Shown piece by piece: positions 35,812 to 64,000 of a stretch of DNA of 64,000 nucleotides. The DNA lies in the NCBI RefSeq assembly GCF_964213995.1, contig NC_135825.1, positions 12,090,001 through 12,154,000 on the forward strand, in the 5' to 3' direction. Below the pieces are notes generated by a model that did not search any database, was not told where the DNA came from, and saw only the letters and a list, made by a program, of their open reading frames with translations. A program made the position numbers and the translations under genes. Every line of letters starts with the position of its first letter. Positions within the stretch are counted from its first letter, which is position 1. Source of the DNA: Mustelus asterias (Eukaryota).

Positions 35812-35899
35812 TGTTATCTTGGCAATGTTTCGATCAGTATTTATCGTCTGTCACCCAGCTCTTTGTTGAGATGTTGAAAGGCGGATCCAATAAACTCTG

Positions 35900-36787: not shown

Positions 36788-36960
36788 TCAGAGAGGATGG
36801 TGGGTGCAATTGATAGGGGGAGGAGGGTCATGAATCAGGAATGGTCCCTCCCACTTGTGAAAATTGAGGATTTGGGACTGAGTTTGACTATTGTTCAGTG
36901 AGCCAACTCCGGCACAATGAGCTGAATCAATTCCTTCTGTTCTGTAGTTTCTAGAGGGCG

Positions 36961-40412: not shown

Positions 40413-42579
40413 CATTCTGAAATGTACAAGTTGTGGCTCTAATTCCCCAGTTTCCCCAGAGGCTGTTCTATGCTGATACCTCACTGATAGAGGCAGCATG
40501 GAAACTGATGTAAAGACATGGGCCTGAATTTTATATCCTCCAAGGTTCAAGCAGGAGCTGAATGGGGCGGACTCGCCAGTCAGTCAGTGCGAGCACCAGA
40601 GAGGATGGTGGATACAATTGACAGGGGGAGAAGGGTCATGAGGCAGGGATGGTCCCTTTCACTTGTACAGTGCTCCATGGGCAGAGGATGCCAACAATCC
40701 AGTCCTCCAACACTGGCATACAGACAGGGAAATCCCAGTTGTCCCACCATGTGACCTGTTCATTATTGGAGATTTTAAAATTTGTTCAGGAACTTAAAAA
40801 TTTGTTTTATTGTTATTTAGTTTTCATGGGAAATGAGTATTGCTGGCGAAGACAGCATTCATTCCCCATCACTAATTTCCCTTGACAAGGTGGGGGTATG
40901 CCACTGTCTTGTACAGCAGGAAATGCAGCAACACCCGTGCTGTTTGTCTGTGACAAATTCTGTATCAATGCTGATCTTCTCGCTGCTGCAAACACAGCTC
41001 TGCATTTGGTATCTGACACCTATTGTACATTCACAGGGTTTCTATCTCACACCACCCTGAGGACAGCAACACATTTTTCTTGCAGTTTCAAACCATGAAC
41101 ATTGCAAGTTGCAGCAAACATGAACCCACGTTTATTTCCAATGTCAATCTCTCTCTTTGCCTTTCTCATCAACCGTTAAAGAATTTGAGGAGTTAATGGA
41201 ATATTGCTATAAATTGGTGCTTATTTCGGATGAATCCGTCACTCACAGAATTCTATACTCAATAAAAAATGATCAAACATTGGAACCATTTGGAAAATTC
41301 AGAACTCTGAGTACACGTGGGTACTCTGTTACACGTGGGTAAGAACTTCACTCTGAGTAAATCTAAAGTTAGAACTCTCACTGACCACAGCCTTGGATGG
41401 AGAAACATGTTTATTTTTTATTATTAACTCATTTGTAGAATCAACAACAACAGCAATAACTTGTTCTTTTAAAAGGGCCTTTCACTCATAGAATTTTGCA
41501 GTGCAGATGGAGGCCATTCGGTCCATCAAGCCGACACAATGCCACCCAGATCCTATCCCTATAACTCCACATATTTACCCTGCTAATCCCCTGACACAAT
41601 GGGGCAATTTAACATGGGCAATGAATCTAACCTTCACATCTTTGCATTGTGGGATGAAACCGGAGCGCCTGGAGGAAATTCACACAGACCACGGGGAGGA
41701 CATTGTGCAAACTCCACACTGCCAGTCACCCAAGTTCGGAATTGAACCTGGGCACCTGGCACTGTGAGGCAGCAGTGCTAACCACTGTGCCACCGTACTG
41801 CCCGGTAAAACCTCCTCAGGCATTTTATGACATCAGACAAGTGCTGTTGCTGAGGCAAAGATTAGATCAAAGAGACTGGTCAGTTTTAGGGAGAGGTTGC
41901 TGGAGTTTTGCATCTAGACAATTGGAAACATTACTGTTAGCGGTGTGGTGAAGAATTGGAAATACACGAGAAGCCACGGCTGGGGGAACATAAGATTCGC
42001 AGAAACATTTGTAAAGATAGGGACTGACGAGAACATGGAGAAATTTGAATAGGAGAATGAGAATTTAATATTGAGTTTATTTGATTTTGGGAACCACTCA
42101 ATGAGCACATACACATGAGTGAAGGGCACCCGACAGGTGTCACAACAATATGTCATGTGAGATATGGAATAACACTCTTTAAATTTATCACCTGGACAGA
42201 TATGCGCTGAAACTCATTAAAGGGGCTTTTGCCGAGCAAAGTCACGACATACAAACACACAAATTAGGAACAGGAGGAGGCCATTCAGCCCCTCATGCCT
42301 AATCTGTCATTCAATGATATCATGGCTGATCTGATTGTGACCTCAGCTTTATATCCCACTGACCCTGATAATCATTGACTTCCTTGTTAGTCTAGAATCT
42401 TCCAAGCCTCATCTGAAAAATATTTATTGACTCTGCCTCCACCACTCTCTGGGAAAGAGAGTTCCAATAATTCACAACCCTCTGAGAGAAAATAAATCTT
42501 CTCATCTCTGTCTTCAATGGGAGAAACCTTATATTTAAATGGTGTTGGTGAGTTGTAGCGTCTCTCAGCATCCACCCTG

Positions 42580-43499
42580 TCGTGTCCTCCATTAAGGGAC
42601 CAGACCAGACACTCCAAGGTGTTTCATAAAGTTAGCCGAGACCCAAACTTTTAGATTTGATTTTGGAATTAGGGTGAGCATAAGGTGTTTTACTCCAGGT
42701 ATGATTCAAGTGACCCACGAGGAAACTTTAGTCAAAACTAACTTTATTTAAGAAACAGTTAGAATAGAGCAAAAAAGAATTAGCATAACTTTTACCAAGT
42801 AAAATACTTAAACATGACAAAGTATAATTTTTACAAGCTAGCTATCGCTATTGTTCCAATTTAGCACATCCCCCAGTCAGACATAAATCCCATCTTGAGA
42901 AACAGTTCGCAAAGAAAGCAAATATGCTTCATGAACACTTGGTTTCCAGCCTTTTAATACCTCTCGACAAACATCAGGACAGCACTTTCTAGAGAAGGAT
43001 ATATTCCAAACAACAGAACTTCAGAGAAGTAAACCTAATCTGTGGCAACTCCCAGTCTTCAGACTTCAGAATTGGAAATGGATTCCTCACTCTGCAGCTT
43101 CCAAAACATCACCTTCTCAGTGAAAGAGACTTGCTTCCTGGCAAATTCCAGTCTCCAACTTCAGAGAGGGAAACTGAAAGGCACGACTCTCTAACAACTC
43201 AAAGCAGAATTTGACTTGATCTTTCTGTGTAAACCTAGCTCCACCTAGTGATACGACTGTACCTATCACTTAACCTAATCAAGCCCTACTCTGCAAAACC
43301 CCAGGGGCCCACTGAAAATCAAACAGAAAAACATTAGTCCAGATTAAAACAAACATCCTTGCAATTAGGAGCAATTATGCTGCTGCAGTAACAACACACT
43401 GCTGCTGGACAAAGCGGCATGGATAACAAAAAGAATCTGCGAAAACAGACCTGCATAAGAAACGTAACAATACATTCCTTAATTCACAATATTTTCACA
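42580..43499 (-). mobile_element. Solo LTR related to 8663-9426
   Basis: Shared blocks ACTCCAAGGT...GTATGATTCAA.TGAC...TTTATTTAAGAA; ends in CA; left boundary approximate. Confidence 0.55.
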
Positions 43500-46442
43500 T
43501 GAGCCAATCCTCTATCCATGCATGAATATTCCCTACAAAACCATCTTGCGTATTAACCTTTTGTATGGTACCTTATCAAATGCCTTTTGAAAATCCAAAT
43601 ATACAACATCGACTGGTTCTCCTCTATCTACTCTGATTGATACCTCTTCAAATAACTCTAGTAAATTTGCCATTCATGACTTTCCCTTCATGAACCCAAT
43701 CTGACTCTGCCTGATCACATTATAACTTTCCAAAGGCCCTGATATTCTTTCCTTAATAATTGATTCTGACATTTATCCAACAACTAAATTTAAACTAATC
43801 CAGGGAATTTCCCATTCTGAGGTTATACAGGCACATTGTTCCATCCTGGGAAAGTGGAATATATCATTGGAGCGACTGGTATCCAGTGCATGGAAAAATC
43901 ATGTTGCCAATTCCTTCCAGAATTTGTTCATCTTTAAATTGACAAAGATTAAGATAAGAATATGAAACAAGAAATGTAGACATTTAATCAGCAAACAGAT
44001 CAATTATTCTCCAGATGTCGATATACAACCTGAAGGTCACAGCCACTGTTTGGATTTTGATTCCTCCACTAAATTTTTGATCCAAATCATGTTGGTTGGT
44101 TTTTGTTTTTTTATTAGTGTCACAAGTCGGCTTACATTAACACTGCAATGAAATTACTGAGAAAATCCCCCAGTCGCCACACTCCGGCGCCAGTTCGGGT
44201 CACTGAGCGAGAATTCAGCATGGCCAATGCACCCGAACCAACACAACTTTCAGACTTCATTTAATAATGAAAAAACATACTATTATGTAGATTTGTTAAA
44301 AGAAATGTTCAAAGCTGGATGAGGATTGAATATTTGACCAGGATGCAAAATTGCTTCGATGTAGATGGAATCCCAGAATCTTCATTTTCCCACTTTGGTC
44401 CAACTGTGAGAATTGGATTCATTGAGTGACTGGAAAAGAAAATCATCAGATTCATTGAGATTGGGAGAACAATGCATCAATTGACATTTCAGTCTTGAAC
44501 AGAATTCTGGAAATGGCAACAATTTGGGGCAGTTTCGAGATCACATTGATCGCCCTTTGCATGTGCGCTGGGAAACACTCGTTTGGATCCTTCATGAAGA
44601 CACGTAACCTTATTTACCCACAGAAAACCAATGTTCCCCTGCTGCTGTGATTATGGACAATTGACTGGAGAAATTGATTGCTCTGTCCATGTTTCTAAAA
44701 ATATTTTATACAGTCCAGTTGGTGCTTCCAGCAACAACATCATTGGGTCTGTGTCTCAGCCTCTTACTGCTGTCTGAATCATTTGAAATCTCTTCCAGTT
44801 CCTGTCCAGAAACAGTCAGCCCTGTTGCCTTTTTATAGCCTTTCCAATTTCCTTCCTTATTCTTTTGCTGACAGTTTAATAAGATTGGATGGTAAGATGG
44901 AAGGGTTCTTCCATGGATGGGTTACACAGGAACACAGTAACAAGAGCAGCTCATTCAGCCCCTCGAGCCTGTCACACCAACCTGCAACTCCACACAGACA
45001 CTCACCCAAGACCAAAATCGAACCTGGGTCCCTGTCTTATCTAATCCCAGCTGTGAGAATTCTAATTGGCCCAGCATCCACAGATTTTAGGATGGATTAG
45101 TTCCAGATTTCCATGACTAGCTGTGTGAAAATAATGCTTCCTAATTTTACTCCTAAGTATCTAAGCCCTCACTTTTGGGTTATGGCCCCGTGTACTCCAT
45201 CTCCCCACTGGGCAAAGAGTTTCTCTGTACCCACCATACTGAATCCCATAAAAACTTCAATCACCTATCCCAGCAACCTCCAAGTGTGAGGAAATGCAGC
45301 AAATTTGTGCAATCTCTGCACATAATTTACTCCATTCTTCCCTGTATCATTCTGATGTATTGATATTGCAGAGATGATGGTTTAGTGTCAATGTCACTGG
45401 GCTAGTAATCCAGAGGTTGATAGTAAAGTGCTGGGAACATGATTTCAACATAGTAGCTGGTGGAATATAAATGCAATGAATTCAATTTCAATTGATGAAT
45501 GAATCTGGAATTGAAAATCTGACCAATGGTGACCAGGAAGCTTGTCATCAATTGCTGTAAAAACCCATCTGGTTGGTTGGGGATGGTGATAAACGGTCAT
45601 AAATTGTCATAAATCCTCACTGATATCCGTCAGGGAAGGATATCTGTTTTCCTGATGCAGTCTGACCTCCATGTGACCCCAGACCCACCGTGATGTGTTT
45701 GATTCCTAACTGTCTTCTGAAATGGCCGAGCAAGCCACTCGGATCTGGCAATTAGGGATGGGCAACAATTCTGCCCTTGCCAGTGACGTCCACATCCCGT
45801 GAAATAGAACAAAAAGACACTGCATCCCTTCCGAGGCCAATATTTTGTTCCTGTGATTCGGACACCATCCAGAACAAACAATTCAACATTGCATTATAAA
45901 ATCCTCCAGTGATAAAGTGAAACTTCCATTTATGAGTGGAAGTTATCCTGGACAAAGTCAGCTGATCACTTCAGGATGGATGCAGCTGCAACAAGGATCA
46001 GGAACATTGACACAATCGAAAACAAACAGTCCCCTTGATCTTTCCTACATAACATCAGCAACACTTCAAAACCAAACCATATAAAATGTAAGATACTTTG
46101 GGTGGACTTTCCACCCAAGTTCCTCTGGTGGGGTGAGGGAGGGAGGAGGGCGGAGGGGGCTGGACAAGAGCAGAAGATCTCGCGAGAGCCCCCAATCATG
46201 TTATTACTTTGATGGGAAGTCTCTTTGTGATTGTCCCCAGCTCCCATCACTGACATCACAGGATTCCCAACGTTGAACAACATAATCAATTTGCATGTCA
46301 TTATCAAGACCTGGCACCTGATCAACCCCCGCTCCCCCCACACCCCCCAACCCTCACTTCCACTGTTCGATGATCCACTCACATCAGTGTGAGGGCACAC
46401 TGGTGTGCATTATGATTGATGGCCATGGCATGTACCAGGAGG

Positions 46443-47385
46443 AAGTCTCACAACACCAGGTTAAAGTCCAACAGGTTTATTTGGTAGCACAAGCCACTAA
46501 CTTTTGGAGCGCTGCCCCTTCATCAGGAGAGTGGGAGTTCTGTTCACAAACAGGGCATATAAAGAGACAAACTCAATTTACAAAATAATTGTTGGAATGG
46601 GAGTCTTTACAGATAATCAAGTCTTAAAGGTACAGACAAGGTGAGTGGAGAGAGGGTTAAGCACAGGTTAAAGTGATGTGTATTGTCTCCAGCCAGGACC
46701 ACCAGTTACACGGTACATACTCTTGCAACTCGGCCAACGTTGTCTACCTGATACGCTGCAGGAAAGGATGTTCCGAGGCATGGTACATTGGGGAGACCAT
46801 GCAGACACGATGACAACGGATGAATGAACAATGCTCAACAATCGCCAGGTAAGAGTGTTCTCTTCCTGTTGGGGAGCACTTCAGCAGTCACAGGCATTCG
46901 GCCTCTGATCTTCGGGTAAGCGCTCTCCAAGACGGCCTACATTACACACGACAGCGCAGAGTCGCTGAGCACAGACTGGTAGCCAAGTTCCGCATACAGG
47001 AGAACGGCCTCAACCGGGATCTTGGGTTCATGTCACACTATCTGTAACCCCCATGACTTGCCTGGGCTTGCAAAATCTCACTAACTGTCCTGGCTGGAGA
47101 CAATACATATCTCTTTAACCTGTGCTTAACCCTCTCTCCACTCACATTGTCTGTACCTTTAACACTTGATTACCTGTAAAATCTCACATTCCAACCATTA
47201 TTTTGTAAATTGAGTTTGTCTCTTTATATGTCCTGTTTGTGAACAGAACTCCCACCTCCCTGATGAAGGGGCAGCGCTCCGAAGACCAGTGTCTTGTGCT
47301 ACCAAATAAACCTGTCAGACTTTAAGCTAGTGTTGTGAGATTCCTTACTGTGTTTACCCCAGTCCAACGCCCTCATCTCCACAGT
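46443..47385 (+). mobile_element. Penelope-like element with inverted pLTR (GIY-YIG fragment between inverted arms of about 260 bp)
   Basis: YSCNSANVVYLIRCRKGCSEAWYIGET; arms at about 46443-46699 and 47086-47346; 13-bp TSD ATGTACCAGGAGG (46430-46442 and 47386-47398). Confidence 0.88.
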
Positions 47386-47452
47386 ATGTACCAGGAGGGC
47401 AGACCCACTGCAGATGCTCAGGTGAGTGCATCGCTCAAGTTACTATCAAGGA

Positions 47453-47925
47453 GCAGTGTCCATTCAGTGCCAGGGGTCAGTGCCAGTGACAGCGTCCATG
47501 CAGTGCCAGGGGTCAGTGCCAGGGTCAGTGTCCATGCAGTGCCAGGGGTCAGTGCCAGTGACAGCGTCCATGCAGTGCCGGGGTCAGTGCCAGGGTCAGT
47601 GTCCATGCAGTGCCAGGGGTCAGTGCCAGCGTCAGTGTCCATGCAGTGCCAGGGGTCAGTGCCAGTGACAGCGTCCATGCAGTGCCAGGGGTCAGTGCCA
47701 GGGTCAGTGTCCATGCAGTGCCAGGGGTCAGTGCCAGGGTCAGTGTCCATGCAGTGCCAGGGGTCAGTGCCAGTGACAGCGTCCATGCAGTGCCAGGGGT
47801 CAGTGCCAGGGTCAGTGTCCATTCAGTGCCAGGGGTCAGTGCCAGTGTCAGTGTCCATGCAGTGCCAGGGGTCACAACTGGGGCAGCGTCCATGCAGTGT
47901 CAGGGGTCAGTGCCAGAGGCAGTGT
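47453..47925. repeat. 36-bp minisatellite, about 13 copies (CAGTGCCAGGGGTCAGTGCCAG[T/G]G[A/T]CAG[C/T]GTCCATG)
   Basis: Direct repetition; 12-aa periodic ORFs in several frames. Confidence 0.92.
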
Positions 47926-48112
47926 CGGGGGGCAGGGCGGGGGTGTGGAGGGGGGGGGGGCGGTGCATGAGGTTGTGCAAGGGGAGGGGGGTTCCATTTT
48001 CACTTTTGTGCATCAAGTTGACTTTCAAAAATATCATTTTGATCTTGAAGAAACTGAAATTTCTGGTGGGATGGGCAGTATCCTGTCCCTTCAACATTTA
48101 TACACATATTCT

Positions 48113-48154
48113 TCACCATATTTCTTCACCGCCTCTTTTCCTGCCCCTGCCACA
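48113..48154 (-). CDS. Gene B candidate terminal exon (short basic tail CGRGRKRGGEEIW*)
   Basis: Pyrimidine-rich acceptor ttttacctttcatttccaag|TGT in phase 0, 134 nt after the TM donor. Alternatives are the next AG (GQEKRR*) or intron read-through (VRIMDFTTIILSTL*). Confidence 0.35.
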   Translation of the reverse strand, partial: CGRGRKRGGEEIW

Positions 48155-48288
48155 CTTGGAAATGAAAGGTAAAATTCCCCCCCGTGTTTAAACCTGTGGA
48201 CATTGACATCAATGCAAGTTTCTCTGCACAATATCTGTGATAATTACAAAGTGCTCAGAATGATTGTTGTAAAGTCCATAATCCTCAC

Positions 48289-48388
48289 CTGAGATTTTCT
48301 CGTGAACCATGTGACCGAAATCACACAAATCACCAGGAGGGTAAAGAGCCCCCAGCGAATCACATTCCAGATGAAGAAACTGAGCAAA
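48289..48388 (-). CDS. Gene B transmembrane exon with charged Arg (NxxR): LLSFFIWNVIRWGLFTLLVICVISVTWFTRKSQ
   Basis: Acceptor ttctgtatttcttccag|T, donor CAG|gtgagg; 100 nt; phase-2 start matches the stalk exon; hydrophobic helix containing one Arg. Confidence 0.85.
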
Positions 48389-49123
48389 CTGGAAGAAATA
48401 CAGAATGATTTGAAGGGAATGAGGCAGCTTCGTGTTTGAAACATGAATCTCCTCTTTACACTGTGACCTATTGTAGCAGCATCGCACAGACAAGGCACGT
48501 TAGCTGGAGCAATCAACTAAAGTTTCACTGATCAACTTCATGATCATTAGATACAGATCAAATGGAGCTGGTTTCATTAACTTTCCTCAGTATATCTGTA
48601 ATGCTGAGTAAAAGCTTAGAAGTAAGAATGTTATGAATTGACTGGTCATTGGGACAGAAACATTGTCTGGTGCAACATAACATTGGTGAGATATCTGTTC
48701 AGTGAGTAAGAAACTTCCAATAACATCATCCCACACTGTTCCAAAGTAGAATCATATTCCACTCAATATCAACTCTGCTCCTCTCTTCACAGATGCTACC
48801 GGACCTGCTGAGTTTTCCCAGCACTTTCTGTTTTCATCATCCCACAATTCCCTGGTGCACCTCCTGACAGGAAATTCGGAACCAGCCGGAAGCAGACGGC
48901 CTCAGTTTGGGAACAATGTATTAAACTGGGCAACTGAGAAGGGGAAGATGACAGTGAATGCAATGTTCCTGTCAGCGATACTCCAGAACACACCGGGTTA
49001 AGGGAATCTGGCATCGCTGGAGTGTGACAAGCACAACTCCATGAGATTGGGTTCACGGTGAAGTGATTAACATGAATAATGAAAACTGCACCATCTAAGG
49101 TGTGGCAAACAGAGAAAGCTCAC

Positions 49124-49142
49124 TTCTTAGTCTGAATTTCCA
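49124..49142 (-). CDS. Candidate 19-nt stalk micro-exon (V)EIQTK(N) of gene B
   Basis: Branch point CTAAC, acceptor gctgtttctgtcag|, donor AA|gtgagc; phase 1 to 2. Confidence 0.4.
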
Positions 49143-50618
49143 CTGACAGAAACAGCAACTTTGTTAGGAAGCTAACACAATACCATTATGTAAACACAGC
49201 TACCGGGTGGGATGGTGAGCCCGGGTTGGGGGACCACAGGAATGCTGATGGGGATTCAATATCTGGCAAAACCTGGAAGGCGCAGGCGACTTCATCAGAT
49301 TCACGGCCATAGTGGGCAAGAACCTGATTTACATACATTTTAATATATTTCCATATCATTAAAGACCCCCCCACTCCCCAGATATTGAGCCCTCGCTGTG
49401 TTTTCAAACCGGGGCAACGTGACATCACATTGGTGCATTTTACATCAGGTTCACCTGGACATGATGGGGAACCCCCTTCCTGGGCAAGAGGGATATGGTC
49501 AGGCAGTGGCCTGGCAATGCCCTCTGGCACTCTCCCTTGGCGCAGGTTGGCACTGCCAAGTTGGCACCATGCCACCCCAACATTGCCAACCTGGTAGTGC
49601 CAACCTGTACCAGTGGCAGTTCCGGGGTGGACCTCAGTGGGAGTCTGATGGGGGAGGGGTTATTCATTTACAAGTGAGGGTGGGCCGGAGCGGACAGGGG
49701 AGCTGGAGCAGCCGTTTGTGGGAAGGGGCTGGGTTTGTCGGCAATGGCTGTGTGGGTGGAGGGTTGGAGGGAAGGGCTCCAATGTTCGGGGGGAAGGGGG
49801 GTGGTGCCAGCACTGACTGCTGGAGGGGGGGAAAGGTCTGATATTCGGGGGAGGGGTTTGGTGTCAGCACTGACTGCTGAGGGGTGATGTGGGGGGAGAA
49901 TTGCTGGCTCATAATAGGAGGATGCCCCGACTCTGACCGGGGTGTGGTGGGATTTGGGGGGAGCCCCTGAGAGCTCTGTGGTGGGTGGGGGGGAGGTTAC
50001 ATTTAGTTTTGATTGGGCCGCCATGTTTGTGCACTGTCAGCTTACTGCAGCCAGGATTTGCTGGTGTATCGAGGCCCCGCCCCCTACATGACGATGTGAA
50101 GCACGCCCAGCTGTTTTTTTTGTGACAGAGTGTGGTAAGTTCTGGAGAGAAAGACAACCTGCTTCGAGCCAGAACCAACAGTTTTCAGTAAGATTTCCCT
50201 AATATTGTGTTTTATGTTTACGGGGGCTGTTTACAGATTCAGCTTTATTCTGGAGGCAGTCGGTGTATCAGTAAAACATTCAGTTCAGATGCTGGGAGAG
50301 CAGGATAATGGCTCATTTTAGCCATGGAGGGGGGAAGCTAAGCAAAAAATGACTGTTGTTTCCGGTGAGAAAACCGACAGGTGTCTCTCCAGAGAAACAG
50401 GTTAGATTTCTGTGCAGATCTTTGACTGAGAGAGGAAACCGGAGCACACGGAGGAAACTCACGTAGGTTCAGAGAATGTGCAGACTCCAGGCAGACAGTC
50501 ACCCAAGGCCAGAATTGAACTTGGATCCCTCGTGCTGCGAGGCAGCACTGCTAACCACAGTGCCTCTGTGTCACCTGTTGTCATCCTATTGTTAGATCAA
50601 AATCCAGGAATTTCTTAC

Positions 50619-50712
50619 CACTCACTTTTCGTCCATGCCACACCAATCTGACCTGTGTCACACAACTGCAGTTCTCCCCTGATCTGATGATCACTGACAC
50701 TGGAACCATTTC
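50619..50712 (-). pseudogene. Relic 3' end of a C2 Ig exon at the duplication breakpoint
   Basis: Translates EMVPVSVIIRSGENCSCVTQV versus D4 EMVSVSVINRSGENCSYVAQI; abuts a CR1 fragment at 50713; possible donor gtaag at 50618. Confidence 0.8.
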
Positions 50713-52707
50713 TGGGACCTGTGGACATTCACTCCAAGGATTTTCAAATCCTCCACATACCCCAGTATCCTCCCATTTATTATCTCACCATTTGCTTTGT
50801 TTGACCTGCTCAAATGCATCACCTCACACTTCTCTGGGTTGAATTCCATTTGCCACTTTTCTGCCCACCTGACCAGTCCATTGATATCTTCCTGCAACCG
50901 ATAGCAATCCTCCTCGCTATCTACTGCATTAGTAATTTTCATTACATTCCATCTAAATCATTAATATATGCCAGAAAAAACAGGGGACCGAGCACTGAGC
51001 ATTGGAAACAGCCTTCCAGTCACAAAAACAGCCATCAACAATCATCCTTTGTTTCCTGCCACAATTAATTCTTGGCCATTTGTTTACGGAAGTGGGTTTT
51101 GAAATTATACAGCACTTTTCATGGCCTTTGGATGGCCTAAAGAATTTTATAATCTGGGAAGTATTTTTAAACAACCGCCACTGTTGTGATATGGGAGATG
51201 TGGCAACCAATTTGCACACAGCAAAATCTCAGAAACAGCAGTGAACTTTGACCAGATCAATATTGGCCATTTCTTCAGAGATCTCCTTGTCTGCTTTTTC
51301 TGTAGATAAGAAGTGACCTGCTGCGTATTTCCAGCAGCTTTTTCATCATTTTGATGTTTAGTTGGTATTTTTTCCTCATCACCATTGTAACCTCCGTGTT
51401 TACATTGGACAACAATTTCTGCTCTTTCTGTGTGTCCCAACTATGTTAGGGGTAGTGGGTTTTAACAGAAAAAGAAAATACTTGGTTTGCACACGTAGAT
51501 TCAAGCAAGCACAAACCAGGTTTTATTGATGAGCTGCTCTCTGCACTGCATCAAGTACAAAACTGACAGTCACACAGCAGCCTGAGCACGCACCCTAATG
51601 ACATCACATCAAATCAACCCATTTTAAAACTCACACCTTCATGATGAAGCGAACACAACAACATCCCGCCAAGGTTTCTGATCTGAGAGTTATTGAAAAA
51701 TGATGCCCAGTCTCCCCGATCGTCAGAGACTGGACATATGACCCAAGATGTGTGTCAGGACCCTGCAGATGACCCAACATGATGATCTCCATGGGAATTG
51801 CCTGGGACATTGGAACTTCCAACGGACAGTTCTGCTGTACCCTGGGTCCCTCTGTGAAAATCTTCAGCTCTGGGTAAGAGTCAGACACTTCAAACAATTC
51901 CATGGGGCTTAACTGGATAGTTACCCAGGAAATGTTAGACTGAAAGAATCAAGTTTAATTCCTGGGTAATCACAGAACTGACCCCCGAATAATCACACTG
52001 ACCCCCTGGAGTCCCCCCAATCCTCTGATTAACCCCCTGACACACCAACTATCACCCCACACTCCGCCAATTCCACCTGATCTTGTGACTATGCCACAAC
52101 CTGAGCCAATCCGATTATTCCCTCTGACTACCCTTTGCACCCACCACTTGATTACCCAATGTCCAAATCTGATTAGCCCCCAAACCAGGCTACCCCTGCC
52201 AACCTGACCCAATTGCCACACTATTCATCTACCACCTCATCAACCTACAACCTCACCCACCTGCAACCCTACCCTCCTGTCACTTCATCAACAGACTACC
52301 TCACCCAACTGCCACTCTACCCACCTCACACGCTTGTGACCTCACTCATCTGTTTTCTCACCCACCTACCATCCTTGCCTCCGACTAGCAACACATCTAT
52401 ACACCTGTCTCCCTATCCATCTTTCACCCGACCCACCTGTGCTCCTACAGAGTTCCGATGGAGTTCTCCGAGGGACACTGCGCTCCACAGTTCTGGAGAA
52501 TCTGGAGTCGGAAGATCAGGCAAGAAATGTGGAGCTGAGTCGAGGGTGGAAAGCTTCAAGCGGAGTGGCAATCCAACAATGATTGCTGCTCTGTGACTGG
52601 CCCAGGACAATAAATGACATCCATTCTCACGCCAAAGTTGTTAAAGAGGATTTAATCACTCACACAGAAGCCATGTCATTTAAACACTAACAATAAAAAC
52701 AGCGTAC

Positions 52708-52786
52708 CTTTCAGCAAATTTGGAGTTTGGAATTGAGGAATGTGTTGGCGATACTGTTAAAATTTCACAAGAATTTTCAGGTCCGA
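52708..52786 (-). CDS. Gene B stalk exon (V)GPENSCEILTVSPTHSSIPNSKFAE(S)
   Basis: Splice sites intact; 79 nt; 4 amino-acid differences from the gene A stalk. Confidence 0.75.
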
Positions 52787-55106
52787 CTGAAAGAAGGAAA
52801 CAACATTCAGATCAGCCTCATTTTCATTGTCGTTAACTGAGAGAGTCACATTGTCAAGTGGCACCTCAACCTGAGGGAGAACCACGTTGAGGGAGCGCCT
52901 CTTCTTGGGATGTGGGTGTCGCTGTTTAGGCCAGCAATTATTGCCCATCCCTAATTGCCCTTGAGAAGGTGGTCATGAGATGCCTCTTGAACCGATGCAG
53001 TCCATGTGGTGTAGGTACATCCACTGTGCAGTGAGGGAGGGAGCACCCATCGCATCTGCGCCAGTCAAAAACAAACCACCTGACTATTCCAAACCCAGTT
53101 TCCAGCACTTGGCCCATAGCTCTGTGTGCCTTGGCATCACGAGTGCACATCTAAATAATTCTTAAATGTTATGAGGGTCTGTAAGACACCAGGAAAACTT
53201 GCCTATTCCTCCTGGAAGAGGGCCATGAAATCATTTACATTTAGCTCAAAGGATGCATGGATCAGCAGTTCAACCAGACAATAGCACCGTCAACAGCAGA
53301 GCGCAATCTCCGTGCTGTACAGTGATATCAACCCCTTTCTCGGAAGGAGAATTTGAACTCACAATCCATTGGTTTCAGAAATCAGGCTGCTACCAACTGA
53401 GCCCCTTCTGACACTGACATATTTGAATATTAAACATTCAAACTGGTTATAGTCCTCATTAATTCAGGACTATCGTTAGTGTTTATGTTAACACTGAGTA
53501 ATTCAGTGTTTAGAACATGGAATTCTGAGATTTTGAGCAGCATTTTGTGATGATAGAATTTTTCGGCAAAGAAGGAAATTTGGTCCATTGCCCTCCATCG
53601 CTATGAAAGAATTTGCCATTTAGAATCAGAGAATCCATGCAGCGCACAAGGAGGCCATTTGGCCCATCGAGTCTACAACGACACTCCCATTGTTGTGTCT
53701 TTTCCCCAAATCCTCCTAAATGTCTGCTCCTTTTTTGCTTCCCTTGTGAAAGCTGTTATTGATTCTGTTTCTAACGCAATCCATATCTTAACAATCATTT
53801 GCATCAATAAAATTCTCCCAATTTCTCCCGCTGTCCTTGTTGTGATGATCTTAACTGGATTCTCTCGAGTATTCACTCACTTACTACTGGAAATAATTAG
53901 TCTCAATTTATCTTATCAAAGCTTCAAATAATTTTGAATAGATTTAGCAGACTATTTCCTTCTATTCTAATGATTCTTTGCCGGTGTTAGCTGTTGGGAG
54001 CACTCTTGTATCTGCAGCCACAAGGATCTGTGTTCTCGCCCTACTCTAGGAATCAAAAATCAAAGCTGAAACTCCTGTGCAGTACTGAGGAAGTGCTGCA
54101 CTGTTGGAGGTGCTGCCTTTCGGATGGGATGTTGAACTGAGTCCCCAATCTGCCTGCTCTATGGGCGGCATGGTGGCACAGTGGTTGGCACTGTTGCCTC
54201 ACAGCGCCAGAGACCCGGGTTCAAATCTGGCCTTGCGTGACTGTCTGTGTGGAATTTGCACATTCTCCCCGTGTCTGCGTGGGTTTCCTCCGGGCACTCT
54301 GGTTTCCTCCCTCAGTCCAAAGATGTGCGGGTAGGTGGATTCGCCAAGCTAAATTGCCCCTTAGTGTCAGGGGGAACTAGCTGGGGTAAATGCATGGGAT
54401 TATGGGGATAAGGCCTGGGTGGGATTGACGTTGGCAGAGACTCGATGCGTCAAATGGTCTCCTTCTGCACTGTAAGATTCTATGGATTCTATGAAACTAT
54501 GGATGTATAAGATCGATGGCACTTGATCTCCTGAAGAAAAACAGAAGCGTTATCCGAAATCACCCGGCGATATTTATCCCTCAATCAAAAACAGGTTATC
54601 AGTTCATTATTTTGAGTTTGCTGTGTGTAAATTGGCTGCTGTGTTTCCTGCCTCACAACAGTGACAGTGCTTCAAAAAGCATTTCATTGGTTGTAAAGCG
54701 CTTCGAGAAGTCAGATGACTGTGAAAATAAATGGAAGACATTCTTTCATTTTGTAAGTGAGACCTCTTAAGATGCTATCATTTCACATCAACTCTTCAAC
54801 TCTCTATCCTTACGATTCATCCTAAAGCAAGAGACATCAGCTAAAGATTGTTATTCACAATTTGATCTCCAAGAAATGGGAACAGGAATGGTTAATGGAG
54901 ACCTTGTCAGTCAAGTTCTATTTAATATTAATGGGATTACTGCAACATTTAGACATGTTTGGGGAATATTTTATGATCCTGATATTTTCAATCAATATTT
55001 TAATCAGTAACTTTGTTCCGAGTTGTTGAGGGACAAAGCAGAGTGAATTTTGTCAGTTGCAGTCATTCAGAGAGACATTAGGAACCGAACCAGCAACCAG
55101 CTTATT

Positions 55107-56737
55107 TAGAACTTAGAACATAGAACATAGAACAGTACAGCACAGAACAGGCCCTTCGGCCCACAATGTTGTGCCGAGCTTTATCTGAAACCAAGATCAA
55201 GCTATCCCACTCCCTATCATCCTGGTGTGCTCCATGTGCCTAACCAATAACCGCTTAAATGTTCCTAAAGTGTCTGACTCCACTATCACTGCAGGCAGTC
55301 CATTCCACACACCAACCACTCTCTGCGTAAAGAACCTACCTCTGGTATCCTTCCTGTGTCTCCCACTACGAACCCTATAGTTATGCCCCCTTGTAATAGC
55401 TCCATCCACCCGAGGAAATAGTCTTTGAACGTTCACTCGATCTATCCCCTTCATCATTTTATAAACTTCTATTAAGTCTCCCCTCAGCCTCCTCTGCTCC
55501 AGAGAGAACAGCCCTAGCTCCCTCAACCTTTCCTCATAAGACCTACCCTCCAAACCAGGCAGCATCCTGGTAAATCTCCTCTGCACCCTTTCCAGCGCTT
55601 CCACATCCTTCTTATGTGAGGTGACCAGAACTGCACACAATATTCCAAATGTGGTCTCACCAAGGTCCTGTACAGTTGCAGCATAACCCCACGGCTCTTA
55701 AACTCCAACCCCCTGTTAATAAAAGCTAACACACTATAGGCCTTCTTCACAGCTCTATCCACTTGAGTGGCAACCTTTAGAGATCTGTGGATATGAACCC
55801 CAAGATCTCTCTGTTCCTCCACAGTCTTCAGAACCCTACCTTTGGCCCTGTAATCCACATTTAAATTAGTCCTACCAAAATGAATCACCTCACATTTATC
55901 AGGGTTAAACTCCATTTGCCATTTTTCAGCCCAGCTTTGCATCCTATCTATGTCTCTTTGCAGCCTACAACAGCCCTCCACCTCATCCACTACTCCACCA
56001 ATCTTGGTGTCATCAGCAAATTTACTGATCCACCCTTCAGCCCCCTCCTCTAAGTCATTAATAAAAATCACAAAGAGCAGAGGACCAAGCACTGATCCCT
56101 GCGGCACTCCGCTAGCAACCTGCCTCCAATCCGAAAATTTTCCATCCACCACCACCCTCTGTCTTCGATCAGACAGCCAGTTACCTATCCAATCGGCCAA
56201 CTTTCCCTCTATCCCACACCTCCTCACTTTCATCATAAGCCGACCATGGGGGACCTTATCAAACGCCTTACTGAAATCCATGTATATGACATCAACTGCC
56301 CTACCTTCATCTACACACTTAGTTACCTCCTCAAAAAATTATATCAAATTTGTGAGGCACGACTTGCCCTTGACGAATCCGTGCTGACTATCCCGGATTA
56401 ATCCGCATCTTTCTAAATGGTCGTAAATCCCATCTCTTAGGACCTTTTCCATCAATTTACCAACCACCGAAGTAAGACTAACCGGTCTATAATTACCAGG
56501 GTCATTTCTATTCCCTTTCTTAAACAGAGGAACAACATTCGCCATTCTCCAGTCCTCTGGCACCATCCCCGTGGACAGAGAGGACCCAAAGATCAAAGCC
56601 AAAGGCTCTGCAATTTCATCCCTTGCCTCCCAAAGAATCCTAGGATACATTTCATCAGGCCCAGGGGACTTTTCGACCTTCAGTTTATTCAAAACTGCCA
56701 GGACATCCTCCCTCCGAACATCTATTTCCTCCTATTT
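55107..56737 (-). mobile_element. Duplicated CR1 LINE, disrupted (stop near 56340, frameshift near 55616)
   Basis: Same element and site as 19910-21540; ORF split into 56339-56692, 55523-56281 and 55197-55640. Confidence 0.95.
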
Positions 56738-56751
56738 CAACTATCACTTAC

Positions 56752-57075
56752 CAACGCTGTTGATCTGTGCCACATAACTGCAATTCTCCCCTGATCTGTT
56801 GATCACTGACACTGAAACCATTTCACTGGATTTTTCTTCCTGGTGATTTGAGGCTGTGCAGTAATATTGATGATGTTGCTGTGTGAAGGATTGACAATGT
56901 AGATCCAGTTTATTGGTGTCAGAGATCTCTGAATCTTCAGACGGGGTCTTTTCATGCCATGTGTACTGAATGGGAAGTGATCCCTGGACAGACTCACAGG
57001 AGACGGACACTGAGCCCCCAGAACATGAGGCATTTGGTGGTGATAAAAATTTAAGTTCAGGAACAGACACGGGTT
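56752..57075 (-). CDS. Gene B Ig C2 domain D4
   Basis: Same splice sites as gene A exon 5; one amino-acid change (TWYEK to TWHEK). Confidence 0.9.
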
Positions 57076-58336
57076 CTGTGGAAAAGACAATCATTAACGG
57101 ATTTTCACAGTAACTTCATTGCAGTGTTAATGTAAACCTAATTGTGACACTAATTTATAAAAGCTTTAACAATAAACTTTAAAATTTTAAACTTTAGAAT
57201 GACCAAAAAATTAAATCGTTTCATAGTCCCAATATTTCTACACCTCATCCAGGGTGTGAGGCGGAAGGGGAAGTGTTAGAGAGAGAGAGAGTTGGCAGTG
57301 GGAGCTTGGCCGAATGCAGGTAGTATCTATTGATTGCTGTCATGAACAGCAGATATTCATGATAGCAGATTAGTTAGTAACAATCATTGGAGTGTGACCT
57401 GAGATAGACTGTGGATGTTTGCTGAGATAACGGAGACTTAAATATCTTTCCAAAAATCTAATCTTGACCTGAAATCCACCTCCGCTGCCAGTTGGAATTG
57501 GGAATTTGGCGCTCAGCCAAATCTCCATTCACAGCAGCGGGACTGGATAATTCCAGCTGCGGACGAGTTTGGTGAATTCCAGCCATTGTTTGGAGTTGTA
57601 TTTAACATTTAACAGTAAGTACCGTTTAACACTTAAGTGTGAGTACTGTTTAAAGTCGAGGGCGGGGTTTTATGGCCTCGAATGAGCGAGACGGAAAATA
57701 CCGCCCAAGGTCAACACCCTTGAGTCTGCCCCACACCCGCTCCGATACCATGGCGGGCGAGGCAGTAAAATTCCGACGTACGTATCATCCAAAGGACATG
57801 AGCTGGGAGATAGAAGCTATCCACTGGCAGCAACTGGAATAGTTAATTGGGGAAACTGGCTTGAACTGGTCTTTTTGTACTGAGTCCCTTTGTTTTTGAA
57901 CATATAAATTTAGACATTCTCAGTGCAAACAGCACTGGAGTCTGCCTTCAACCGAGTATGGACGTTTAATGAGCTGAAGGAATTTACTACAGGGGAAGAA
58001 GTGAGCTGTTGGTGAGTATCTGGGGAGTATCCCGGAAGTGGGCAAGGTCTATTATCCAGGCATTGGGAGCAAGGGTGAGGTCCTTGCCAACTTGTTCACC
58101 AGGAGAACGGGGTTCAAGGTGCAATAAATCTGACCCCATCTCTCTGGATCATTACTCTTGGCCTCTGAATTACAATTCCTGCAACATAATCATTGTTCTA
58201 ACTGCCCTCTAGCTGCCAGACTCTGCACTGCTGCGGAGCCTCGGGATATCGGAGCTGTCAATGTCTCCTCCCAGGTAAAGCACCGATCAGACATTTCAGT
58301 CGAGAGTAATAAAGATAATCACGGAGAACAATGTAC

Positions 58337-58645
58337 CGTCAGATATTTGTAGCTTTACAGGAAACATTGAAAGGAAGCCGGGCTTATCAATACCACAGCT
58401 GTACCATCCTGCATCTCCTGAATGAAGATCCTCCATAGTAACAACAAATAATGCTTGTGTCTTGTGATCTGTGATCGACATTCTCCCTCGCCGTCCATCT
58501 GGATCGTCTGATTTTACCAAAACAGAGCACTGACGACTCCAAGTTTTCACATGTGACTGAGACAATTTGTCATAGTGACAATCTATAGTGATCGATCTTC
58601 CCAAAACTCCTGTTACATTATTTTTTGCCCACAATGCACTTGCAG
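58337..58645 (-). CDS. Gene B Ig V domain D3
   Basis: Same splice sites as gene A exon 4; one amino-acid change (PGLLS to PGFLS). Confidence 0.9.
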
Positions 58646-59314
58646 CTGAAAAGACAACAGGTCAAAAATTGAACTGAAAATAATTGCTTCATACAACCAG
58701 ATATATTTCAATAGGATTTACCACTGTGTTCAGAGAAATCTCTCCAATACACCTTCTAATGTAATTGGATACTTCCTTGTTTGATATCGTTGGGCACATT
58801 GAATATGTGCTTCCGGCGGATTGATAATTAGACAACCATATTGAGATTGTATCCCAAGCCCTTTATAAAGCAAGACCCTGAGTGGTTCCATTAATCTTTT
58901 AGTCCTGGTTGGGACCTGTTGTGTTCACCACAGGTGTGTGGGAATTCTTTATTTTCATTTTGTACAATAGAAGCACGGTTCCTTCACAGCCGGCTCCTCG
59001 AGTTATTATATTCTCAAACAGCAATTCTCAGACAGCAGATTGTCTGCTCATGATCACGTTGCTCTTAGAGGGAGCTTATTGCTCACAAATTGGTGCTGAG
59101 CTTCCTACATCACAACAATGGCTCTGAATCAGTTCCAGCATTGACCAGAACGGACTTTAAAACTGTCCTGAAGATGTGAAAAGTGCAAAATAAATGCAAT
59201 TCTATTTTTATTCCAATTGCTTCGAGCAGCTGATAGAACATAAACCATGAGCAATTCAGACTGATGTTAATTTAAAAATTTGTTGTACTTTTTGAAGCGA
59301 AAAGAGATATTTAC

Positions 59315-59638
59315 CAATGTTGCTGATTTGTGTTAAATAACTGCAGTCATTCTCTGAAATGTGGATCACTGACACTGTAACCATTTCACTGGATTTTTTT
59401 CCCTGGTTATTTGAGGCTGTGCAGTAATATTGATGACGTCGCTGTTTGAAGGATTGACAATGTAGATCCAGATTATTGGTGTCAGAGATCTTTGAATCTT
59501 CAGACGGGGTCTTTTCATACCATGTGTACTGAATGGGAAGTGATCCCTGGACAGACTCACAGGAGACGGACACTGAGCCCCCAGAACATGAGGCATTTGG
59601 TGGTGATAAAAATCTAAGTTCAGGAACAGACACGGGTT
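59315..59638 (-). CDS. Gene B Ig C2 domain D2
   Basis: Same splice sites and same translation as gene A exon 3. Confidence 0.9.
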
Positions 59639-61652
59639 CTGTGGGAAAGAAACAAACATTCAGAAACTGACTGAGCATCTAAAAATCAAACACTCTGTGA
59701 ATTTCAGCTCATCAACCTCTCATTCAGGGTCAGTCATGTTGCAATCTCACCAACACATCCAGCTCTCCATTTCTCTCCATCCTCCAAGCAGCCTGAACTA
59801 CAATGTCTGCTATTATATCAGAACATCGCAGCTCTCCAGATCAAACCATGAACCAGGACCGAAAGATTTAAATTTAATGGTGAGTGGATTAGATGAGATT
59901 TGGGGCAATGGGTTATTTCACTCGGGGGATGTTGAGGGTCTGGAACTCACTGCCTGGAAGAGTGGTCGAGGGTGGGAGAGGCGGATAACCTGATCACATT
60001 AAACAAAATGGATTAAACTTGAGATGCTGTAACCTACAGAGCTCTGGATCAAGAACTAGATGGTGGGATTAGATTGGATTGCTTGTTCAGTCAACCCAGT
60101 GTGGCACAGTGGCACAGTGATTAGCACTGCAGCCTCACAGCGCCAGGGACCCGGATTCAATTCCAGCATTGGCTGTGTGGTCAGTGTGGAGTTTGCACGT
60201 TTTCCCCGTGTCTGCGTGGTTTTCCTCTGGGTGCTTCAGTTTCCTCCCACAACCAAAGATATGCAGATACCCATGGGGAGGTGATGGCCCAGTGGTGTTA
60301 TCGCTAGCCTATAAATCCATAATCTCATCTAATGTTCTGGGGACCAGGGTTCGAATCCCGCCATGGCAGCAGTTGGAATTTGATTTCAATAAAGAAAATC
60401 TGGAATTAAGAATCTACTGATCACCATGAAACCATTGTCAGTTATTGGAAAACCCATCTGGTTCACTCATGTCCGTTAAAGAAGGAAATCTACCATCCTT
60501 TCCTGGTCTGGCCTACATGTGATGCCAGAGCCAAAGCAATGTGGTTAATTCTTGACTGTCCTCTGAAATGGCCTCGCAAACCTCTCAGGATGGGCAATAA
60601 ATGCCACCCAGCCAGCGATGCCCATGTCCACAAATGAATAAAACAAATACTGGCACCTCCCACCAGGCACCAGGCAGTGCCAATGTGGGTGGTGCTGGCG
60701 GGGGAGTTGGCATTCTGGGGGGTGGGGCCTATTGGGGGCTCAATGTGTTGGGGGGTTTTCAGTGACACTGTGCACTGGGATCAGTGTGAGAAGGAGAGAG
60801 GAGGGGGACCAGGGCTGGCTATCTGGGTGGGGGGAGATCGGGGCTGGCCCGGGAGAGCTCTGGTAGGCCAGTGATTGGATGGTTGTGGGGGGTCGGGATG
60901 GCCAGCGATCGGGAGGCTAGCGGTGAGGGGGCCACTGTGCATGCGCCACTCTCCGCAGTGACAGATCGGTGTGTGTGCAGTGGCTCACTCAGCACTATAC
61001 TGCCAGCCTCTCTAGTGGGATTTGGACCCGCTCACCACATTTCAGAGTGAATCAATCTGTGTCGGAGAATCGTTCTGGTCCGTCCCTTATGTTGTCAAAT
61101 GAGCCTCTTCAGACACTGGAGTTGCAACACATCAAGGAAGCTGATCAGGAAACGTGTACTCGCTGTGTTGTGGGATAGCCCGTCAGTGAGTTGCTTGTCT
61201 CTGTTCATTCCTTTGTCTTGTGGAGCTCAGGGTCTGTGTGGAGGAGGCAGTTGCTGCTATTGGTGCTATTGGTCACCTGGGTCCTCATCTGAGGCCCAAA
61301 ATAAAACAGCCTGAGAACCACCCATGCTGATCTGATAGATACAATCACCAAAATGTAACCCAGAAATACACATTACCATCTCTGTTGTGAAAGTCTGTAA
61401 ATACTGATATTAAAACCTTTCACACAATCAGGCTAGAAATAAGCAGTGAGGTTCCAATGCTCCTTGGTATCTTTCCCAGTCACTTCTTCAGCCTCCCCCA
61501 TTGCCTCTGTCTTCTGCCCTTGCTCAGTAACCCGAGCAGCCATTGTTAGATTCCACTAATTGCACTCACTGAGCGATTAATAGACTGAAATTGATAACCC
61601 GTCTCTCACTGGGGGGATTTGATCACACACGGATTGACACATTTAATGTTTC

Positions 61653-64000
61653 TGATGCGTGACAATTAAGCACGTGGAACCAAGGCTTCGATATTGAAGG
61701 CTTTTATTGTGTAACAATGGAACTACTAACACGAATACACCAGTTCAGACTGAAGGGGTCCTGCCGGAGCAGGGGGTCTTATACCTCGCCACCGGAGGCG
61801 GGACCCCACTGGAATGTGCCATGATAACTCTTATAACAGGTAAACACCCTAACCCAACAACATTGTACAACCCCCACAGTAACAACACCCTAGCCCAACA
61901 GTAACATAATAACAACCCCCAGTGGTGAACCAACGATGGTTCACCACATTCACCCCTCCTTTAAGAACAAAAGGTGGCGGGGTGCAAGAAAAAACAGGTC
62001 ATATAAACAGAATTCACAAGTCCAGACGGTCTGGAGGACCGCACCGACGCTGTGATCTCCTCAACACCGGTTGCGAAACCGGAGCAGGTGCTTGCGGTGG
62101 CGTTCTTTCCAAAACAACGTCTGGCTGTCCCCTCAAGGACTCCCGGGCCGGTTGGCCCTGGTGAGGCGATGGTGCAGGGGATCCTGGAACCTTTGGTGGT
62201 GGTGGTGGTGGTGATGATGGTCGCGCCGATCTCCCGAGTCTCAGGCAAGCTGTACATGGGAGTAAAAGTGTTATGCACTGGTCCCGGTGCTGACCGCGCC
62301 ACGTCTCGGGAAGCAATGAGGAGTAGTGGATTCGTGACTGGGGGAATAGGAGCGACAGGAGTTGCTACGTCCCCTGCGGGCGCCAGGTCTCTAATGGAGA
62401 CAGTGTCCTCTCGCCCGTCAGGATATGCCACATAGGCATACTGAGGGTTGGCGTGGAGGAGTTGGACCGGTTCGACCAAGGGGTCGGACCTGCGAGCCCT
62501 CACATGTCGCCGCAGAAGGACGGGTCCTGGGTACGTCAACCAGGCTGGCAATGAGGTTCCCGAGGACATCCTCTCGTGGGGAGTAGCATTGGTTGCCGTA
62601 CACAGGAGGGAGCGGATAGAATGGAGTGCCTTTGGAAGGACCTCCTGCCAACGGGAGACTGGAAGGCCCCTGGATTTCAGTGCCAGTAGGACAGCCTTCC
62701 AGACTGTAGCATTCTCCCTTTCCACCTGTCCGTTACCCCTAGGGTTGTAGCTCGTGGTTCTACTAGAGGCAATCCCGAATGAGAGCAGGAATTGCCTCAA
62801 GTCGTTGCTCATGAACGACGAGCCCCTGTCGCTATGAATGTAGCAGGGGTACCCGAACAGGGTAAAAAGCTCACTGAATGCCTTGATGACGGTGGCAGTC
62901 GACGTGTCCGCACAGGGGACAACAAACGGAAACCGGGAATACTCGTCTATTATGTTGAGGAAATAGACATTCCGGTCCGTTGAGGGAAGGGGGCCCTTAA
63001 AATCCACACTCAGCCTCTCAAAAGGGCGAGTGGCCTTGACCAATTGTGCCCGGTCTGGTCGATAAAAGTGTGGTTTGCATTCTGCGCAAATCCGACAGCT
63101 TCTCGTCACTGACCTGACATCCTCCACCGAGTAGGGCAGGTTGCGGGCTTTGACGAAGTGGTAGAGTCTGGTGACTCCAGGATGACACAGATCATTGTGG
63201 AGAGCCTTCAAGCGGTCCTCCTGCATGATGGCGCATGTTCCGCGCGAGAGGGCATCCGAGGACTCATTGAGCTTCCCTGGACGATACATAATATCGTAAT
63301 TATAGGTGGAGAGCTCAATTCTCCACCGCAAGATCTTATCGTTCTTGATCTTGCCCCTCTGCGTGTTGCTGAACATAAACGCCACGGATCGTTGATCCGT
63401 GATCAGGGTGAACCGCTTCCCTGCCAGGTAATGGCGCCAGTGTCTGACTGCCTCCACAATGGCCTGAGCCTCCTTCTCCACCGCTGAGTGCCGAATTTCG
63501 GGGCCTTGAAGGGTGCGGGAAAAGAACGCGACGGGCCTGCCTGCCTGGTTTAGTGTGGCGGCTAGGGCGAAATCAGATGCATCACTCTCCACCTGGAAAG
63601 GGATGGATTCATCCACTGCGTGCATCGTGGCTTTCGAGATGTCGCTTTTCAAAGCCTTGAAGGCCAATTGGGCCTCCGGCGTAAGTGGGAAGGTCGTGGA
63701 CTTAATGAGCGGACGAGCTTTGTCCGCGTAGTTGGGGACCCACTGTGCATAATACGAAAAGAACCCGAGGCATCTCCTCAGTGCTTTCGTGCTAGCGGGC
63801 AAGGGAAGTTCAGTAAGTGGGCGCATACGGTCTGGATCAGGGCCAATGACCCCGTTTTCCACCACGTATCCGAGGATGGCTAACCTACGCGTACGGAATA
63901 CGCACTTCTCCCTGTTATAGGTCAGATTCAGGCGAGATGCAGTGCGCAGAAAGTGTTGGAGATTCGTGTCGTGGTCCTGCTGGTCATGGCCGCAGATGGT
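61653..64000 (-). mobile_element. Duplicated Gypsy element (3' LTR 61653-61948 plus IN/RH/RT, cut by the window end)
   Basis: Same left flank (..TAATGTTTC|TGATG) as the 26456 copy; ORF 61961-63865; 21-bp in-frame deletion in integrase. Confidence 0.97.

Follow-up and report, generated by a model that had tools for sequence, protein, structure and literature searches.

Two Divergence Strata in a Five-Unit Tandem Array of MDIR-Type Receptor Genes in the Shark Mustelus asterias

Introduction

The 64,000 nucleotides of the Mustelus asterias genome analyzed here (assembly GCF_964213995.1, contig NC_135825.1, positions 12,090,001–12,154,000 of the forward strand; hereafter the window) hold the left part of a tandem array of genes for predicted MDIR-type paired receptors, whose extracellular immunoglobulin (Ig) domains of V and C2 type resemble those of CD300 and pIgR. 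The first two units of this array differ strongly on one side of a sharp break and only slightly on the other, and these two strata probably represent an old, preserved array edge next to an interior that was recopied later. Exons of the surrounding cluster were mapped over 664 kb, and coordinates beyond the window are window-relative.

Results

Gene Content of the Array

The V2 exon occurs in five near-identical same-strand copies spaced 35–37 kb apart, and in the 464 kb around the window the array homology starts at 15,731 and ends at 196,531, in the phase of position 50,712. This corresponds to exactly five units, A to E (Table 1), where a first-pass annotation of the stretch had described two copies and had not noted the junction within a C2 exon from which the homology extends. 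Each unit carries private or block-shared variants and distinct insertions. One branch of the array expansion is marked by a 1,793-bp insertion of long interspersed nuclear element (LINE) type (66,981–68,773), of which B, C, and D have identical copies and A and E none.

Gene A is an intact gene of inhibitory type, with an open frame that runs from the leader through four Ig domains, a stalk, and a neutral transmembrane (TM) segment to a pair of immunoreceptor tyrosine-based inhibitory motifs (ITIMs); the RefSeq model P0001 agrees with gene A in its 3' exons as far as the second ITIM. The exon order of B–E is an A-type ectodomain and stalk, an orphaned 3' fragment of a C2 exon, an exon for a TM segment that includes an arginine (Arg), and a short tail. 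In units A–E all ectodomain open reading frames are open and their AG/GT splice sites intact, and since the stalk exon ends in phase 2, the B–E products are predicted to be in frame. B–E are chimeras that carry the ectodomain and stalk of gene A on the Arg-containing tail of a native activating gene, F. Their four Ig domains lie 2–4 residues from those of A, with V1 and C2a identical in A, B, and E. Near-identical ligand-binding domains, joined in A to two ITIMs and in B–E to an Arg-containing TM and a short tail that lacks tyrosine motifs, are features by which paired receptors are recognized, so the inhibitory/activating pair of the first-pass annotation holds.

The junction that founded the chimeras can be read to the base. 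The 231 bases spanning 50,712|50,713 have four copies in the assembly, all at 100%. Three native activating genes (F, J, and G) have only the left half of this sequence, and four inhibitory genes (A, H, H2, and K) only the right half. No microhomology is visible at 50,712|50,713, and comparison of the junction with phage sequences gave no match. The native activating genes lack an A-type stalk, and in them the last C2 exon continues to a donor of phase 2, compatible with the TM exon; this makes the junction the derived state. A 19-nt candidate micro-exon at 49,124–49,142 (minus strand) has plausible splice sites and is kept in F, J, and B-type tails; joined to the stalk in B–E it would produce an early stop. 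Its interpretation as the source of a stop-containing soluble form was demoted because native F, G, and J read from C2 to TM in frame.

It is also important to consider the family to which these receptors belong. Pfam recognizes V-set and Ig_3 domains in the ectodomain, the best PDB matches are pIgR and CD300, and in pairwise comparison V1 and C2a are 55% and 67% identical to domains of skate MDIR5, which has the V-C2-V-C2 layout and TM type of this array. The clearnose skate MDIR2, 3, and 5 (P0103, P0065, and P0076) have the V-C2-V-C2-stalk-TM layout in common with the array; MDIR5 has an Arg-containing W..xRW TM segment and a short tail, like B–E, and MDIR2/3 have tyrosine-motif tails. The founding description of the clearnose skate family is said to be Cannon et al. 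2006 (PMID 16738934). CD300/pIgR-like V domains and C2-type domains are thus both found here, and tails of activating and of inhibitory type are present both within the cluster and among other sharks and rays, in agreement with the description of MDIR as a multigene family with activating and inhibitory forms (PMC3031540). As judged from domain similarity, the receptors of the array are shark MDIRs. A limited search that did not reach the founding paper found no literature on MDIR genomic organization, chimeric origin, or homogenization. V1 exceeds the V2-type exons (e.g., 23,140–23,448) by 12 nt in length; the V2-type exons are also without the first of the two cysteines of the extra C-C' pair that is present in V1 and in the skate MDIRs.

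Table 1. Features of the array and its surroundings (window-relative coordinates; LTR, long terminal repeat).
Feature	Position	Strand	Remarks
Tandem unit A, first of five	15731..50712	.	Homology mapping
Tandem unit B	50,713-87,300	.	Left part 50713..64000 inside window, rest past window end
Tandem unit C	to 124,592	.	Beyond window
Tandem unit D	to 161,547	.	Beyond window
Tandem unit E	to 196,531	.	Beyond window
Old stratum, unit A, left array edge	15731..18050	.	6.1-6.6% from all 7 other aligned copies
Old stratum, unit B	50713..53247	.	6.2% from A, 0-0.17% from C/D/E
Young stratum, unit B	53248..64000	.	0.6% from A
Non-homologous duplication junction	50712..50713	.	3' part of native activating C2 exon / CR1 fragment in inhibitory TM-stalk intron
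Orphaned 3' remnant of activating gene's last C2 exon	50619..50712	-	Keeps phase-2 donor, GT at 50,618
Activating tail block	40950..50712	.	A, C, D vs E (tail of native gene F) 2.9-3.8%
Gene A, intact inhibitory-type MDIR	10387..35811	-	Exon mapping, open frame
Gene A leader	35,775-35,811	-	
Gene A V1	32,354-32,674	-	
Gene A C2a	24,118-24,441	-	
Gene A V2	23,140-23,448	-	
Gene A C2b	21,555-21,878	-	
Gene A stalk exon	17,521-17,599	-	
Gene A neutral TM	14,981-15,069	-	
Gene A cytoplasmic exon	13,387-13,439	-	
Gene A ITIM exon	10,387-10,662	-	Motifs IVYASV, VTYATL
Gene B leader, beyond window	72,744-72,780	-	
Gene B V1, beyond window	69,322-69,642	-	
Gene B C2a exon	59,315-59,638	-	C2b-V2-C2a span 56752..59638
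Gene B V2 exon	58,337-58,645	-	
Gene B C2b exon	56,752-57,075	-	
Gene B stalk exon	52708..52786	-	79 nt, phase 1 to 2, in frame with activating TM exon
Gene B activating-type TM exon	48289..48388	-	FIWNVIRWGLF, Arg in membrane segment; type as in P0016, skate MDIR5
Gene B short cytoplasmic last coding exon	44382..44429	-	No tyrosine motif; matches P0016 tail
Young CR1-type LINE 3' fragment (RVT_1)	19903..21535	-	C2b-stalk intron; B copy about 55,100-56,730
Gypsy-type LTR retrotransposon	26456..31158	-	296-bp LTRs; B copy starts 61,653
V2-C2 runs of H, H2, K	-111,600 to -94,400; -56,400 to -17,600; 263,900 to 285,100		

Divergence Between Units A and B

A change-point fit on the global alignment of 15,600–28,824 with 50,585–64,000 places the best break at 53,247 (support 53,228–53,282), close to the ~53,230 of the first-pass annotation. 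To its left the two units differ by 142 substitutions in 2,306 aligned sites (6.2%), and to its right by 65 in 10,753 (0.60%); twice the log-likelihood difference for this step is 266, against a permutation maximum of 16.9 (n = 1,000), and Fisher's test gives p = 1e-59. Indels follow the same division, with five in the 2.5 kb left of the break (12, 4, 9, 202, and 12 bp) and three in the 10.75 kb right of it (1, 1, and 21 bp). A self-comparison of the window returned one long direct duplication, in which 15,731–17,081 matches 50,715–52,066 at 92.5% and 17,087–28,824 matches 52,274–64,000 at 98.6%. The two divergence strata are real, and uniform divergence, which the first-pass annotation had named as a refuting outcome, is not what was found. 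The other units stay nearly identical to A as far as A-equivalent ~40,500.

The first-pass annotation was also accurate in its details left of the break. The extra ~0.2 kb reported in B is a 202-bp segment at 52,073–52,274, and as the bulk of it is retained by the three outgroup inhibitory paralogues, it represents a deletion in copy A. Four residues (P/S, D/E, V/I, and Y/S) separate the B stalk from the A stalk, as reported. The claim that the boundary was set by the stalk exon is not supported, since the stalk exon is no divergence peak (6/79 sites vs. 136/2,227 around it, in its intron) and a second old stratum is found at the opposite end of the array; three of the four stalk changes arose on the A lineage and not in the activating copies. 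Within the old stratum there is a second change point at 51,001 (12.4% vs. 5.3%, p = 0.001). The 290 bases that adjoin the junction there (50,715–51,001) have twice the divergence of the rest of the old stratum, mostly through A-side changes. No further change point was found inside the young stratum (p = 0.41).

Age of the Duplication and Later Homogenization

Comparison with the outgroups H, H2, and K (columns gapped in any row were dropped from these multi-sequence distances) gives the relative order of events. Over 15,731–18,050, A and B are 6.2% apart and each is 5.6–6.6% from the outgroups, and the 2,083 sites include 62 derived states private to A, 48 private to B, and 24 shared by both. 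Over 18,051–19,902, A and B are 0.7% apart at an outgroup distance of 3.2–3.8%, with 39 shared derived states, 2 private to A, and 5 private to B (1,840 sites); scaled for the lower regional rate, 66 differences would be expected in this interval and 13 are seen.

Young insertions agree with this order. The CR1-type reverse transcriptase fragment and the Gypsy-type element, which had been reported in both copies, are present in all of A–E, the former being absent from H, H2, and K and the latter having an empty site in the neighbor F; the Gypsy-type LTRs differ at 0 of 296 sites in A and at 2–3 in B–E. Since both insertions are common to all five units, they spread after the old split. Polarized sites and shared insertions together point to an old duplication followed by later homogenization, as the first-pass annotation had proposed for the Ig exons. 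Sequence may have been transferred from A to B or from B to A.

Block Structure and Proposed Mechanism

Along the array, the partner to which a unit is closest changes in long blocks (A-equivalent coordinates; the site-pattern test and nearest-partner track exclude the minisatellite block at 46,600–47,950, which misaligns). Over 15.7–18.05 kb A is 6.1–6.3% from the others and B–E differ among themselves by 0–0.17%; A then lies 0.53–0.60% from the others over 18.05–24.5 kb and 0.33% from E over 24.5–31.8 kb, and over 24–31.8 kb 28 of 30 informative sites support AE|BCD. Over 31.8–40.5 kb the A-B and A-E distances are both 0.14% and C is the outlier, over 41–46.6 kb B and E are 2.9% from A, C, and D (158/160 informative sites support BE|ACD), and over 48.8–50.7 kb E is 3.7–3.8% from the rest. 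Unit B carries the E-type tail over ~41–48.4 kb and is nearly identical to E over about 33–48 kb. A single unequal crossover would give this near-identity if a long haplotype had exchanged with a shorter one that ended in the tail of F. The blocks are mutually incompatible and longer than chance (adjacent agreement 204 vs. a shuffle maximum of 139, n = 10,000), and the distance of A to its nearest partner per 2.5 kb falls toward the interior as 142, 14, 15, 9, 6, 7, 8, and 2. The 36-bp minisatellite at 47,454–47,926, in the intron behind the activating TM exon, varies in length between units.

The homogenized block is one unbroken stretch of ~22 kb that includes introns, young retroelements, and the upstream region. 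Gene conversion would be recognized by patchy, short, exon-centered tracts and an unchanged copy number, and what we find is a ~22-kb block in five units. Patchy tracts of a few hundred bases are ascribed to conversion and large continuous chunks to crossing-over (PMC3210942), so that the continuous block is of the crossing-over type by this criterion, and the gain in copy number needs unequal exchange in any case. With the old divergence at the far end (E vs. others 3.7%), the partner switches in long blocks, the rise in copy number, and the continuity over ~22 kb, repeated unequal crossing-over fits better than one conversion. The first-pass annotation had offered a conversion or unequal crossover of more than 10 kb; the crossover option is retained, and a single A-B event is not supported, given five units with block-wise partner switches.

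We therefore consider it likely, though not certain, that unequal crossing-over in a five-unit MDIR array produced the strata, one being the left edge, which was preserved, and the other the interior, which was recopied repeatedly. An old tandem duplication of a 35-kb segment, with breaks in A's TM-stalk intron and in F's last C2 exon, would have created a gene in which the Arg-containing TM tail of F follows the ectodomain and stalk of A; the junction is observed directly, and the order of events is inferred from the outgroups. Misaligned crossovers between units would then have expanded, and probably also contracted, the array, recopying the interior, spreading the young CR1 and Gypsy elements to all units, and leaving the four chimeras B–E; here homogenization is demonstrated and the mechanism inferred. 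The outermost exchange that reached A would have fallen about 2.3 kb from the end of homology, leaving the stalk-bearing strip at its old 6%. At the protein level, A is predicted to signal inhibition through its two ITIMs, and B–E to splice C2b, stalk, and TM in frame, to activate through an adaptor with an immunoreceptor tyrosine-based activation motif (ITAM), and to bind the ligand of A.

A neutral toy model of unequal exchange (one lineage, an arbitrary 5–80 events, 400 runs each, copy number of 2–6, final arrays of 4 or more units) preserved old edges on both sides in 31–76% of runs, and placed the left boundary between stalk and C2b in 7–37%. The array-edge idea draws on this model, and a literature search on array-edge divergence found nothing pertinent.

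Several observations weigh against crossing-over as sketched here. The model places the boundary in the C2b-stalk intron in a minority of runs only, and its single lineage, arbitrary event number, and bounded copy number make it a simple one. The homogenized block spans the whole ectodomain and the upstream region and leaves out the signaling exons, as selection for pairing predicts, and the other V1 paralogues in the cluster are 5.6–11% apart or more. One assembled haplotype cannot separate a long conversion from two successive crossovers. In addition, no transcript was seen, and the RefSeq models P0001 and P0002 splice ectodomains across units and skip the activating TM; we provisionally read these cross-unit models as prediction artefacts, and the automated annotation appears to merge five genes into two long proteins.

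Alternative Explanations

The identity of V1 and C2a in A, B, and E and the 2 residue differences in the four Ig domains, set beside those diverged V1 paralogues, would also be expected if the ectodomain had been recopied between A and the activating genes by conversion, with selection keeping tracts that spare the stalk and signaling exons (merohomogenization); such sparing of the stalk is known in other paired families (PMC3210942). We regard this as rather unlikely. The tract takes in introns and transposons over ~22 kb without a break, divergence does not peak at the stalk, where three of the four changes lie in A, conversion leaves copy number unchanged, and the old edges also arise neutrally in the model. 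Selection for pairing as such is possible.

Assembly collapse, cross-polishing, or false duplication could mimic the near-identical part, and the differences of only 0–0.17% among B–E over the first 9 kb seem to invite this explanation. We compared contigs of 4 of 23 public runs with 50,580–54,150. Contigs of 316 bases from runs X1 and X3 bridge the junction with 0 differences, and the X1 depths, which are a rough guide only, are 49.2 for the junction type vs. 45.7 for the A/H/H2/K allele (4:4 expected) and 66.8 vs. 43.7 at 53,998 (5 units to 3 outgroups expected); in X3 the junction type and the A/H/H2/K allele have contig depths of 10.8 and 6.9, which do not equal copy number. X1 may be the source sample, X3 comes from the same study, no single contig spans the stretch, and the read check covered the junction side, so the cross-polishing raised in the first-pass annotation keeps a small probability. 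Among the top pieces listed for X5 and X6, from two other organisms, there is no junction-bridging contig, which does not date the junction; their contigs cover the stretch in pieces only. Given the bridging contigs and the variants and insertions that distinguish each unit, an artefact is quite unlikely.

The many related genes of the cluster, with exchange evidently frequent, make it conceivable that the duplication is young and that A, or the founder of B–E, received the diverged strip from a third inhibitory paralogue. This has very little probability, as A's strip is 6.2–6.6% and B's 5.6–6.0% from H, H2, and K and the two share 24 derived sites, so that the assembly contains no donor, and the tail block is likewise old (3.7% from F). 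That regional mutation rate or constraint alone makes the step is scarcely credible. Outgroup distances are indeed lower right of the boundary (about 3.5% vs. 6.1%), but this 1.7-fold change compares with about 9-fold for A-B, where 13 differences stand against an expected 66 (P about 1e-15), and young retroelements common to the units are missing from the outgroups.

Other Features of the Cluster

The inhibitory paralogues H, H2, and K have long internal runs of V2-C2 exon pairs with about 5, 9, and 6 V2 exons, many of the pairs at a ~2.6-kb period, so that ectodomain length varies widely within the cluster. The proteins P0001, P0002, P0006, P0007, P0020, and P0023 appear to be fusions of neighboring genes, with a cross-unit ectodomain or a TM in mid-protein, and such fused shark proteins suggest systematic mis-annotation of MDIR clusters.

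Discussion

The process described here is of a known kind (KIR/Ly49, LILRB3/LILRA6), found in a new family and with an unusually clear record. In activating KIR and Ly49 receptors, an inhibitory ectodomain gains an existing activating signaling domain and then expands (PMC2213150), the same tail swap and expansion as in the shark array, where the founding event is a base-resolved non-homologous duplication junction that left a C2 exon remnant behind. LILRA6 varies in copy number beside a fixed LILRB3, for which unequal crossover has been proposed (PMC3894450). There too an inhibitory gene stands beside a multiplied activating partner with a shared ectodomain; the homologous region is ~4.9 kb and copy-number variation has been measured in people (PMC3894450), whereas the shark array has a 35-kb unit and four activating copies and is known from one haplotype.

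Ectodomains are homogenized with stalk and signaling exons spared in KLRC/PIR (PMC3210942), Siglec-11/16 (PMC5701461), and CD300A/C (PMC12447643), the latter two by gene conversion. In KLRC and Siglec-11/16 the tracts are patchy, from a few hundred bases to ~2 kb, and are ascribed to gene conversion; those of Siglec-11/16 are fragmented and confined to a ~2-kb part (PMC5701461), in contrast to the unbroken ~22 kb and the gain in copy number found here. The chicken BG array also consists of same-orientation tandem immune genes with hybrid members attributed to unequal crossing-over or deletion, but the hybrids described there join expression types and not an inhibitory/activating pair (PMC4046983).

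The shark array, in which founding junction, outgroups, and mosaic blocks are all readable, extends the mammalian pattern of tail swap and homogenization (KIR, Ly49, LILR, and Siglec) to a CD300/pIgR-like family of cartilaginous fish. It also calls for caution, as a boundary close to a stalk exon may reflect the edge of an array and is not necessarily a sign of selection. We tentatively suggest, as one possibility and not the likeliest outcome, that an activating receptor was born at a single non-homologous junction, that selection keeps its ligand-binding domains identical to those of the inhibitory gene, and that crossing-over varies the activating:inhibitory dose (4:1 here) between individuals. 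If this were true, the array would be a copy-number dial like that of LILRA6 or KIR in the oldest jawed-vertebrate lineage, answering a decoy-using pathogen.

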